This document shows positions 33,638 to 46,948 of a stretch of 64,000 bases of DNA, piece by piece. Within the stretch, counting starts at the first letter, position 1; every line of letters starts with the position of its first letter. Under the pieces are notes generated by a model. That model searched no databases. It was not told the DNA's origin and worked only from the letters and a program-made list of their open reading frames with translations. A program made the position numbers and the translations under genes. Source of the DNA: an uncultured Clostridium sp. (GTDB lineage: Bacteria; Bacillota; Clostridia; TANB77; CAG-508); the NCBI GenBank assembly GCA_947302485.1, contig CAMYVO010000003.1, positions 7,567-71,566 of the forward strand, in the 5' to 3' direction.

Positions 33638-33751
33638 TATGAATATTAAAATAGTATTTTTACCAGAAAATACTATTTTTTTCTATATAAAAAGACTTGT
33701 AAATACAAAAACTTAATGGTAGAATAAAAAATGAGTATAGGGGGATTACAA

Positions 33752-45100: not shown

Positions 45101-46948
45101 TTAATTCCAGAATATATTAATCTTATACCAGATAATTTAACGGCAGTGGTAGGACAAAGATTATCTGATATACAATTACCAGATGGATTTGAATGGATGG
45201 ACAGTGCACTGACAATAAATCAGGAAGGAAGTGTAAAATACAAGGCTAGATATATTCCAGAAGATACGAATAATTATCAAACTATAGAAAATATTGATAT
45301 AGAAATTTTAGTTACGGTACCTAACCCGGAAAAGCCTCTAGCTTTAACAATTGAAGGAACTTATACGTATAATGGAGAAAATCAAAAAGTAAATGTATTA
45401 GAATTTGATTCAAATACAATGGAAATTAGCGGAGATATTCAATTTAATGCTGGAACGTATACAATCACAGTAACATCAAAAACAGGAAGATGGAATGATA
45501 ATACTACTACCCCTGTATATGGAGAATGGACAATAAATAAGCAAGAAATAACTCCAGAAATCGAAATAGAAGATAAAGTATTTGATAATACAACAGATAT
45601 AGATAAAAACACCATAACTATTTCTAATTTAGATAATACCGAATATTCAATTGAAAGTGCTGTTTTAAATTCAATAAATGTTGGTAATACAACTGCAAAT
45701 GTAACAATAAAATTAACAGATGATAAATATCAAAATTATACTTTATCTAACAACAATCAAGAATTTAGTTATACAGTTAATGTTTGTATTATAGCAGCTA
45801 AGGAATTAGATAATATTTTAATAACAAAATGTCCTAATAAAACAACATATCTTGTTGGTGAAAATTTTGATTCAACAGGTATGGAAGTAACGGCTCATTA
45901 TACGGATAACAGCACAAGGGTGATTGATAATTATGAAATAATAAATTCTAATAATTTATCATATGGAGTAGATGAAGTTATAATTAGATATTCAGAAGAT
46001 GGTATAACAAAAGAAACTGTACAAAATATAAATGTTTTAGATAATACAATAATTAGATATAAAACGCATGTACAAAATGATGGATGGCAAAATTGGAAAA
46101 CGCAAGGACAAATGTCTGGAACACAAGGAAGAAGTCTAAGATTAGAAGGAATATGTATAAATTTAGAAAATAATGTATTATCTGGAAGTGTTAAATATTC
46201 AACTCATATACAAAATATAGGATGGCAAGAAGAAAAAGTTAATGGACAAATGTCTGGAACTGAAGGTCAAAGTTTAAGATTGGAAGCTATTAAAATAAAA
46301 TTAGAAGGAAATATATCACAATATTATGATATATATTACAGAGTGCATGCACAAAACTTTGGATGGTTAGGTTGGGCTAAGAATGGAGAAGCTGCAGGTA
46401 CAGCAGGATATGCATATAGACTTGAAGGTATTGAAATAGTATTAAGTCGTAAGGAAACACAATTTGAAGGAAATACAATAAATTGTTTCAAACAGAATAT
46501 ACAGTATCGAACTCATGTACAGGATGTTGGATGGCAGGACAATGTGAATTCAGGAGAAATGTCAGGGACATCAGGAAGAAGCTTAAGGTTAGAAGGAATA
46601 ATAATAAGCTTAAACAATACAGATGTTAATGGAAATCTTGAATACAGGACACATGTGCAGAATATAGGATGGCAGGGATGGGTTAATAATAACCAAATGT
46701 CAGGAACCTCTGGCCAAGGTTTAAGATTAGAAGCTATTCAAATTAAATTAACAGGTAGATTAGCAGAAAAATATGATATATACTATAGAGTTCACTGCCA
46801 GAATTTTGGATGGTTAGGTTGGGCCAAAAATGGTGAGTCATCAGGAACAGAAGGATATGCATATAGACTTGAAGGAATAGAAATAAAGCTTGTAGATAAA
46901 AATGAAAATGTACCATTAAATGGAGAAGCATTTTATATAAATCGATAA
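42122..46948 (+). CDS. giant surface protein: subtilisin-like S8 peptidase + BspA-type leucine-rich repeats + Ig-like region + 6 ChW repeats
   Basis: N-terminal TM/signal anchor. S8 catalytic triad motifs AIIDTGCD, HGTHVAGTIA and GTSMATPHAVSAVAIL. Repeated I..IGE.AF / YAFYGC LRR units. C-terminal YKTHVQNDGWQNW... ChW repeats. Start at ATG 42122 after GGGGAGGG. Confidence 0.7.
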   Translation: MKKSKINFLIILIIIVIIMGISGYILRSKNDSTSVNSDDVINLSECSEDFMNNYFDEMREIQEIDNKDNILIVTSKNKIKDGYGASKIVEAPNNQYYLQYNTENERYNAIQEFEKDETIISVEENLYYTINESDYNSWGIEKMSLDTAITVTNEKELNNVTVAIIDTGCDIELFNKYYNGKLSETYDVLKESTQTMNDENGHGTHVAGTIAEGTPQNVKVFPIKVSTNGSLYFSDVITGINYITYYEKADVINMSFGGYGYSEALYNAIESAKEKNILSVAAAGNDNTSRKHYPSSYDNTISIASVNSSLNKSSFSNYGSDITFVAPGSNIKSIMSKKASLSENSDGDDDHEIISGTSMATPHAVSAVAILKSYNKNLNLDNTIDLLKIYATDLGDTGWDMYYGYGMISFKNAEFADGEDNDEYGVFKKKKENPISRIEINTPTLTEYNYGSIYNLLDTPINLYFNNDEYITKKLWEIDELEITGYDAYSSDEQIITVKFNNLTTSFTITNPQEFQSGWEYNVLDENSIELTLYKDNSSNIGKLYIPETINEYKVVSLANNSNLISKVFANSTDRFLFKEIILPKYFTNLGRASLMGLSSLQKITVLADNISVGEYALYGLTKITQFDGLIIELGEGAFRGCRLINNIRLSDSISSIPKLAFCGCDNLENINIPTNVTSIEDHAFEGDYKLTEIDFPEGLKTIGKSAFYSTNLEVVILPNSTETIKQEAFCNAHIIYLSIPKNLTSIGNNAFSECASLEVILVDEENTIYDSRDESNAIIQTATNTLIRGTANTTIPKTVTAIGDKAFDYDLRIDEIEIPESVTQIGSYAFYGCDYLEKITIGRNIETIGENAFKYYSAKYNVDGEKLIPTFWTYNDAYAKTYAIENNLNYETKDPSYVLVSTSKTEYNAFDSVNNDDIISVKLYYDKGYLSGTTYNELKKVAGREEIVEDGYNISYINNRDSFRYGDEYYTISGDNEHGESYSKQVNVVISKLIPEYINLIPDNLTAVVGQRLSDIQLPDGFEWMDSALTINQEGSVKYKARYIPEDTNNYQTIENIDIEILVTVPNPEKPLALTIEGTYTYNGENQKVNVLEFDSNTMEISGDIQFNAGTYTITVTSKTGRWNDNTTTPVYGEWTINKQEITPEIEIEDKVFDNTTDIDKNTITISNLDNTEYSIESAVLNSINVGNTTANVTIKLTDDKYQNYTLSNNNQEFSYTVNVCIIAAKELDNILITKCPNKTTYLVGENFDSTGMEVTAHYTDNSTRVIDNYEIINSNNLSYGVDEVIIRYSEDGITKETVQNINVLDNTIIRYKTHVQNDGWQNWKTQGQMSGTQGRSLRLEGICINLENNVLSGSVKYSTHIQNIGWQEEKVNGQMSGTEGQSLRLEAIKIKLEGNISQYYDIYYRVHAQNFGWLGWAKNGEAAGTAGYAYRLEGIEIVLSRKETQFEGNTINCFKQNIQYRTHVQDVGWQDNVNSGEMSGTSGRSLRLEGIIISLNNTDVNGNLEYRTHVQNIGWQGWVNNNQMSGTSGQGLRLEAIQIKLTGRLAEKYDIYYRVHCQNFGWLGWAKNGESSGTEGYAYRLEGIEIKLVDKNENVPLNGEAFYINR
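46040..46948 (+). repeat. intragenic ChW repeat array (6 units)
   Basis: Repeated ...catgt.ca.aat.t.ggatggca... units. Repeats 3 and 6 are near-identical at the DNA level (tattacagagt.ca.gc.caaaa.tttggatggttaggttgggc.aa.aatgg.ga). Confidence 0.65.

Follow-up and report, generated by a model that had tools for sequence, protein, structure and literature searches.

Why should genes for exported proteins that carry ChW repeats lie inside a locus for cell-wall polysaccharide synthesis, and what do such repeats hold on to? The question is raised by the 64,000-nucleotide stretch of DNA from an uncultured Clostridium sp. analysed here (hereafter the window), in which a preliminary description had placed three large ChW-repeat genes at 33731-46948, among genes for glycan synthesis, and had suggested the polymer made there as the ChW ligand. 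The ChW repeat, a tandem unit of about 45-50 amino acids (aa), has borne its name since 2001. Its ligand, said at the outset to be unknown, is indeed given as 'n.d.' in a 2018 review (PMC5817068) and likewise as unknown in a 2019 review, although peptidoglycan binding has been reported for a lysin domain labelled ChW (PMC10610939). The best reading of our data is that the window holds a conserved wall-polysaccharide locus with an optional and variable cassette of ChW-tagged, wall-active exoenzymes. The polymer of this locus is a candidate ChW ligand; we infer the binding itself from gene linkage, tentatively and with somewhat less than even confidence.

A profile search identifies the repeats as ChW: PF07538 matches three open reading frames (ORFs) at 349, 422.7 and 329.1 bits (cut-off 22), in 6+8+6 stretches. 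A hidden Markov model (HMM) that we built from these same repeats, which makes it circular for the copy count and independent only for absence elsewhere, gives 6+9+6, that is 21 repeats in seven triplets, and none elsewhere in the six-frame translation of the window. The name and the count of 21 first proposed are both borne out, and the span of the three genes, from the first ORF start to the last stop, is as described, except that the CotH-ChW gene is split into two ORFs by a frameshift. All three ChW-linked proteins begin with a hydrophobic signal or anchor, and the repeats are arranged as 3+6, 6 and 6. They had been described as all ending in ChW, which holds for the CotH and protease proteins but not for the glucosaminidase of 871/875 aa, where the repeats are N-terminal and central.

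Sullivan 2007 (cited in PMC5817068) put forward a triplet organisation of ChW, and in our data 111 of 120 homologues, and 40 of 42 complete ORFs of other genomes, carry repeats in a multiple of three. The AlphaFold2 model of a six-repeat array, computed from a 17-sequence alignment, is confident and all-beta (pLDDT 90.3); confidence drops behind the first repeat and where the two triplets meet (repeats 3/4). Triplet identity ranges from 39 to 71% across Firmicutes and Coriobacteriia, the closest species representatives (up to 71%) being metagenome-assembled genomes (MAGs) of uncultured gut Clostridia. Through ChW, these proteins would be retained non-covalently on the wall.

The three genes lie in an uninterrupted glycan block (12.6-53.8 kb). 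Our gene map, based on a Pfam scan of all window ORFs of at least 100 aa, gives this block three GT4, about ten GT2 and one GT32 glycosyltransferase (GT) genes, an O-antigen-ligase/Wzy-like protein, a GT2-DUF2304-GT2 module, rmlABCD, an ABC ATPase with an ABC-2 permease, and a GtrA/GtrB pair. The joint presence of rmlABCD, an ABC-2 exporter and several glycosyltransferases is that of an rgp/cwps-type rhamnose wall-polysaccharide locus. The flanking genes of the preliminary description are found, apart from Wzx, which was not recognisable in the window by Pfam and NCBIfam scans, hydrophobicity or hhalign. The protein families and the locus type are already known. Neither a link between ChW and a polysaccharide locus nor the ligand hypothesis was found in the literature searched.

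The linkage recurs in other genomes. Seven scorable contexts were available from six of the best 120 homologues of the 871-aa protein, and all seven lie within glycan loci, flanked by GT2-DUF2304-GT2 genes on one side and by rml, GtrA/B or ABC-2 genes on the other, usually in the order GT2-DUF2304-GT2-(416-aa membrane protein)-GT2-[ChW genes]-(cadherin-like)-rmlDACB-GtrA-GtrB; synteny in the relatives places the module GT2-DUF2304-GT2-unk416-GT2, named after this membrane protein, directly upstream of the ChW cassette. The enzyme domains in these contexts are of five kinds (GH25, GH73, CotH, M14 and PP1-like), and two M14-carboxypeptidase-ChW proteins, picked in the expectation of other surroundings, are also encoded in glycan loci.

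A scan of species-representative genomes with one ChW triplet as query returned 33 loci, from uncultured Clostridia, Lachnospiraceae, Coprococcus comes, Mordavella, Thomasclavelia, Erysipelotrichaceae, Eubacteriaceae, Acetobacterium, Atopobiaceae and Coriobacteriia. 8-mers of the window's protein served as seeds for the genome sample, which is therefore biased toward relatives, and the flanks were annotated by single-sequence phmmer with the window's glycan proteins, a procedure of limited sensitivity. A glycan gene was found within 300 bp on the same strand in 11 of the 33 loci, at least two glycan genes within 10 kb in 14, and rml genes within 10 kb in seven, where about 1% would be expected by chance according to our own estimate (one rml set per 2-3 Mb genome), which is not a measured control. 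Pfam confirms the arrangement rmlD-rmlC-...-GtrB-GtrA-GT2-[GH25-ChW9]-[GH73-ChW12]-...-GT2-ABC2-ABC-GlfT2-like in Coprococcus comes MSK.16.63, and GT2-DUF2304...[ChW6-transglutaminase-like]-Bac_transf...rmlACBD in an Erysipelotrichaceae MAG. Since the arrangement occurs outside the clade of the window and the rml gene order differs between clades (D-A-C-B, A-B-D-C and A-C-B-D), it is not a single inherited syntenic block.

The reciprocal test started from 80 metagenome loci found with the 416-aa membrane protein, 42 of which have at least 5 kb downstream; in 26 of these 42 a ChW gene on the same strand follows, mostly after about 1 kb, many of the metagenome loci probably coming from the same species, so that the counts are not independent. 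The adjacency of ChW genes to glycan loci therefore holds elsewhere, as the first description would have it: in several bacterial families the cassette recurs at this position and on the same strand, and frequently no more than 300 bp separate it from a glycosyltransferase gene. As it recurs in the same slot with different enzyme domains and in varied architectures, we suggest a functional tie between ChW proteins and the glycan pathway.

The simplest form of such a tie would be that of receptor and client, by analogy with CWB2 and PSII or with SLH and its secondary cell-wall polysaccharide (SCWP), a relation to which we give a cautious assent just short of even. The locus, some 43 kb long, would make a rhamnose-containing cell-wall polysaccharide through dTDP-rhamnose synthesis, cytoplasmic assembly by GT2 and GT4 enzymes and ABC-2 export, a Wzy-like membrane protein being encoded as well. 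Several modules composed of a GtrB-like GT2, a small GtrA/DUF2304 membrane protein and a polytopic membrane protein would decorate it from polyprenyl-phosphate sugars. The cassette would export the CotH kinase-like protein (frameshifted here), the GH73 glucosaminidase, the S8 protease-leucine-rich repeat (LRR) protein and the cadherin-like membrane protein, and ChW triplets would keep the enzymes on the wall non-covalently. As receptor, either the rhamnan portion could serve or the decoration by the GT2-DUF2304-GT2-membrane-protein module, the most constant upstream neighbour of the cassette. Shared inheritance and expression of ligand and clients would follow, as for CWB2 proteins and PSII in Clostridioides difficile or SLH proteins and pyruvylated SCWP in Bacillus. 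In its wider form, the proposal is that ChW triplets act as lectin-like anchors for the rhamnose-containing wall polysaccharide or for this decoration, are used across gut Clostridia, Lachnospiraceae and Erysipelotrichaceae, and have been borrowed by the phages of these bacteria to recognise their hosts; we regard this as possible, and as yet more doubtful than probable.

Through its recurrence and operon-like form, the linkage to a single type of polysaccharide locus points to a concrete candidate for the ChW ligand, and Coprococcus comes MSK.16.63, which is cultured and has the same arrangement, makes it accessible to experiment. If the proposal is true, ChW would offer a new anchoring tag and would join SLH and CWB2 as the third triplet-repeat anchor with a secondary wall polymer as its partner; the display of autolysins, proteases and adhesins by many abundant and little-studied gut Firmicutes would be explained, and a likely phage receptor identified.

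Phage genomes supply evidence of another kind. In three IMG/VR viral contigs (L123 796-5052, L124 796-5007, L125 2195-6616) we find a gene for a protein of about 1,400-1,480 aa, the stop-to-stop ORFs having 1,404-1,478 codons, with 12 ChW repeats at aa 8-767 and then a PHROG tail-protein domain. In L125, whose neighbouring genes were checked, this gene comes immediately after the tape measure and Dit genes, in the host-adhesion position. The adhesion device of siphophages of Gram-positive bacteria, such as the lactococcal and streptococcal phages, usually recognises wall glycopolymers. A ChW tail protein at this position is evidence for a surface-exposed ChW ligand. In the literature searched, phage ChW is described only in lysins, and tblastn of a ChW triplet against phage records returned only two unannotated faecal phage contigs.

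Several points weigh against the locus polymer as ligand. Gene linkage by itself does not demonstrate binding. No glycan gene was detected within 10 kb in 16 of the 33 ChW loci, within the limited sensitivity of phmmer, and 16 of the 42 unk416-like loci have the glycan genes without a ChW cassette; the suggestion made in the preliminary description is in this respect supported by the recurrence of the linkage and weakened by its gaps. ChW is strongly conserved while the glycosyltransferase content of the locus varies, which argues for a conserved ligand, either peptidoglycan or a conserved backbone. A fold search with the predicted ChW model found no PDB neighbour and no lectin-like neighbour, and with no solved relative in the PDB the fold offers no hint of the ligand. 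Finally, the ChW-labelled lysin domain of Lactobacillus phage CL1 binds better after trichloroacetic acid extraction of wall polymers (PMC10610939), and a similar lysin domain binds D-Asn cross-bridged peptidoglycan (Regulski 2013, as cited in PMC10610939).

Peptidoglycan is the main rival: ChW triplets would bind the glycan strand or the cross-bridge, and the cassette would consist of autolysins and wall modifiers co-regulated with polymer attachment. We consider this unlikely on balance, though it deserves serious attention. A parallel exists in Bacillus subtilis, where lytABC/lytD lie beside tag genes. Peptidoglycan is the substrate of most cassette enzymes (GH25, GH73, M14 carboxypeptidase, transglutaminase-like), and the high conservation of ChW across phyla is in keeping with such a ligand; co-regulation, on the other hand, leaves unexplained both the ChW repeats of the kinase-like and protease-LRR proteins at this slot and the 12 repeats of the phage tail proteins. 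Much depends on the lysins. CL1 and Lc-Lys of L. casei (PMC10610939, citing Regulski 2013) resemble the window proteins in having three tandem Y-R-x-H...G-W units after a peptidoglycan hydrolase domain, and peptidoglycan binding was obtained by experiment for the ChW-labelled lysin domain according to the same source. They differ from the window's ChW in that this type of domain is too divergent for Pfam ChW, the CL1 lysin having no match even at E<=10, and in that the ligand reported there is D-Asn cross-bridge peptidoglycan, not a secondary polymer. Our HMM, together with inspection, finds three weak ChW-like units in the CL1 lysin (e.g. VRYRVHTVKSGWLPW), the sequence of which is plausibly that of a distant ChW relative. 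The peptidoglycan-binding precedent therefore cannot be dismissed, whereas the failure of Pfam ChW to see the domain makes the transfer of its ligand to canonical ChW uncertain. Were peptidoglycan the ligand, the cassette would still attest to a conserved link of wall hydrolases with polysaccharide assembly.

It is improbable, in our view, that ChW binds an external target (dietary or host glycans, other cells or partner proteins) and that the locus is merely a co-expressed envelope region. Clostridium acetobutylicum mannanases do carry ChW repeats (PMC3044671), adhesion or protein-protein interaction was among the early proposals for ChW (PMC5817068; PMC5071367), and the 1617-aa protein has adhesion-type domains (BspA-type LRR and Ig-like); however, the dominant ChW partners are peptidoglycan hydrolases, which must act on the producer's own wall, and several families share the linkage to one particular glycan module. 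An incidental linkage, in which accessory genes accumulate at a variable insertion site between the glycosyltransferase block and rml, ChW genes being abundant, is the least credible explanation: the slot does hold zero to three ChW genes with different enzymes, a zeta toxin-antitoxin pair, an S8-LRR-ChW gene that is not kept there and two frameshifted genes in the cassette region, but the same association is seen in Lachnospiraceae and Erysipelotrichaceae loci of different architecture, with ChW genes near and on the same strand as glycan genes, and all seven ChW protein contexts looked up are glycan loci.

Among known systems, the comparison with C. difficile CWB2 and PSII drawn in the preliminary description is apt. 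There, the cwp genes are immediately followed by the polymer locus, and the anchoring unit consists of three tandem CWB2 repeats (PMC4973711). In both systems, exported glucosaminidases, proteases and adhesins share a repeat used in threes, and the repeat-protein genes adjoin a wall-polymer locus (PMC4973711; PMC5065235); the linkage of repeat-bearing exported-protein genes to polymer synthesis genes, which characterises an anchor with its cognate polymer, is thus present in the window. The two systems differ in repeat family (CWB2 is PF04122, whereas ChW is PF07538 with an all-beta predicted fold without PDB neighbour), in sugar pathway (rhamnose here, mannose in PSII) and in layout, the ChW genes being inside the locus and the CWB2 genes beside it; moreover, binding has been demonstrated for CWB2, whereas for ChW it is a proposal. 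The SLH system of Bacillus anthracis similarly anchors many surface proteins by a repeat triplet, with a peptidoglycan-linked pyruvylated polysaccharide as ligand (PMC4973711), but SLH belongs to another fold family, and the window shows no csaB-like pyruvyl transferase.

As for the polymer, the locus resembles the Lactococcus/Streptococcus cwps/rgp loci and the putative glucorhamnan cluster of R. gnavus (PMC6601261) in its rmlABCD, GT2/GT4, ABC-2 exporter and Gtr-type extracytoplasmic decoration genes, and its product is likewise expected to be linked to peptidoglycan. Unlike those loci, it comes without an LCP ligase or initiating transferase: none (Bac_transf, MraY-like or LytR_cpsA_psr) was found among the window ORFs scanned with Pfam, and the genes may be located outside the 64 kb. 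An embedded ChW enzyme cassette is not described for the cwps/rgp or R. gnavus loci in the literature searched, the R. gnavus cluster RUMGNA_03512-03534 ending with a 'carbohydrate binding domain' gene of unknown family (PMC6601261).

Within the cassette, the first gene begins with a CotH kinase-like 5' part with an N-terminal signal or anchor (33731-35233, +; PF08757), whose profile match ends at position 220 of 322. A +1 frameshift lies in a run of five G (35223-35227, +), and the 3' part (35271-36410, +) contains the end of CotH followed by six ChW repeats in two triplets (about 35577-36407; Pfam, HMM and AlphaFold2). As assembled, no single frame holds a full-length CotH match; removal of one G joins both ORFs into 892 aa and extends the match to 1-322 of 322, at 145.9 bits as against 117.6 bits (1-220) without repair, with the six ChW following. 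As CotH is complete only after this removal, the gene is a pseudogene, a phase variant or the product of a sequencing error. The orthologues are longer CotH-ChW-GH25 fusions of 1576-1620 aa, which means that the window copy is both shortened and interrupted. The CotH-ChW-GH25 orthologue is also frameshifted, at another site (GGAAAACGG), in L003 (about 7030-7080) and L004 (about 2950-3000), and these frameshifted contigs are reported from several samples.

Homopolymer interruptions are seen in three genes of the glycan locus: a GT2 gene (A7, 19650-19675), the gene for the 416-aa membrane protein (T6) and CotH-ChW (G5). The GT2 split is a putative one, read from the window sequence alone; in the membrane protein gene, tblastn with the L001 orthologue reveals a switch from frame 3 to frame 1. 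These interruptions could reflect recurrent inactivation, phase variation or assembly error.

The second ChW protein, of 871/875 aa (36539-39154, +), consists of a signal peptide, three ChW repeats (36665-37054), an Ig-like spacer, six ChW repeats (37424-38233), one of which is degenerate, and a GH73 domain (about 38480-39082); the repeats thus occupy aa 47-176 and 300-569, ahead of the enzyme domain at the C-terminus. The protein has an exact match in a public protein collection (P0001). Its description as a glucosaminidase is upheld by homology, although Pfam PF01832 does not detect the domain at E<=0.01, so that the assignment rests on PDB and NCBIfam matches: GH73 structures of Staphylococcus aureus SagB, Atl and AtlE are matched in the PDB (SagB 6fxp/6u0o, E 2e-20; 6fxo, 1e-16; 4pi7, 4e-11), and NCBIfam SagB gives 93 bits, under its cut-off of 425. 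The 'LIQENG' stretch aligns with 'LLETG', which brings into register the glutamate of the E-x-G motif, which we take to be the catalytic residue. The evidence supports the GH73 family level and not an equivalog.

Next to it lies a gene for a cadherin-like beta-sandwich protein of 282 aa with a signal peptide and a C-terminal membrane anchor (39191-40039, +; Pfam), followed by a terminator-like hairpin at 40053-40083. It is kept beside ChW genes in L001, L006, L042, L067 and L085, with homologues at 13846-14481 in L001, 13706-14569 in L006 and 9257-9973 in L042, and it has a weak NCBIfam match to the SAG1386/EF1546 surface protein family. The third ChW protein (42095-46948, +; Pfam, HMM) has, as first described, 1617 aa and combines an N-terminal anchor, an S8 subtilase domain, BspA-type LRR (LRR_5), Big_3 and six ChW repeats (about 46052-46894). 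The S8 match reaches 150 bits, and the D-H-S motifs IIDTG, HGTHVAG and GTSMATPH are all present in the translation. This gene is absent from the slot in the relatives examined, rmlA and rmlC being contiguous in L002 and L004.

The window has a G+C content of about 25%, and nearly every gene from 9.8 kb on is on the + strand. Glycogen and housekeeping genes (GDE, ruvC, holA, gpr, GH57) occupy 0-9.7 kb, followed at 9.8-12.6 kb by phosphoglucomutase, a thymidylate-kinase-like gene and a cytidylyltransferase; beyond the glycan block, from 53.8 kb, are trxB, trx, a LOG-family gene (Pfam Lysine_decarbox/SLOG) and ruvB (all by Pfam). The block opens with a glycosyltransferase series (12662-23341, +; Pfam) in the order GT4, GT2, GT2, Wzy/O-antigen-ligase-like (15680-17188, +), GT4, GT2, GT2 fragment, GT32 (20240-22057, +) and GT4, the short GT2 fragment (19191-19658, +) being continued after the A7 run by a 188-aa ORF in another frame. 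The module that precedes the cassette (23382-28846, +; Pfam) is composed of a 704-aa GT2 with a membrane N-terminus, DUF2304, GT2, the polytopic unk416-like protein (26667-27927, +), frameshifted near the T6 run at about 27290-27335, and a further GT2. As a candidate Wzx, the unk416-like gene was rejected, with an hhalign probability of just 4.9% against a Wzx.

Between the module and the cassette (28892-33637, +; Pfam, NCBIfam) are encoded a 583-aa polytopic protein with a C-terminal GtrA domain, a 525-aa FAD oxidoreductase of the NCBIfam PRK07208 family and a 448-aa membrane protein (ORF at 32291), which contains some nine hydrophobic segments and matches no family. The rml genes form two sets: rmlD and rmlA (40130-41913, +; Pfam), at 40.1-41.9 kb, and rmlC and rmlB, at 49.3-50.9 kb, the latter opening a segment (49276-53849, +; Pfam) that continues with the ABC ATPase and ABC-2 permease of a TagGH/RgpCD-type exporter, GtrA and a GtrB-like GT2.

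The interval between the two rml sets also holds a toxin pair (46998-48204, +), with a perfect TTGACA-17-TATAAT promoter match at 46998, a 74-aa epsilon-like ORF (47053-47277) and a Zeta/PezT-like toxin (47281-48204). The promoter scan is otherwise at background in this AT-rich DNA. In the relative L003, a zeta gene and small upstream ORFs fill the same rmlA/rmlC slot (14987-16586). Zeta toxins phosphorylate UDP-GlcNAc, an activity that makes this one an odd neighbour for wall-glycan genes. Between the toxin and rmlC, a 259-aa ORF (48375-49154) has no Pfam or NCBIfam match and is followed by a strong terminator-like hairpin (49162-49199).

The genes ruvC (2328-2813) and ruvB (55940-56944) are about 53 kb apart, with the entire glycan locus in between, and in L005 ruvB comes immediately after rmlA (14616-16449); the position of the glycan locus beside ruvB on the chromosome may be conserved. 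Downstream of ruvB, outside the locus discussed here, 56913-58754 and 59497-62606 contain more envelope genes, which encode a split Alg14/Alg13-type glycosyltransferase pair, a polysaccharide deacetylase, a 704-aa Fic-domain protein and a sugar-transfer-associated ATP-grasp protein.

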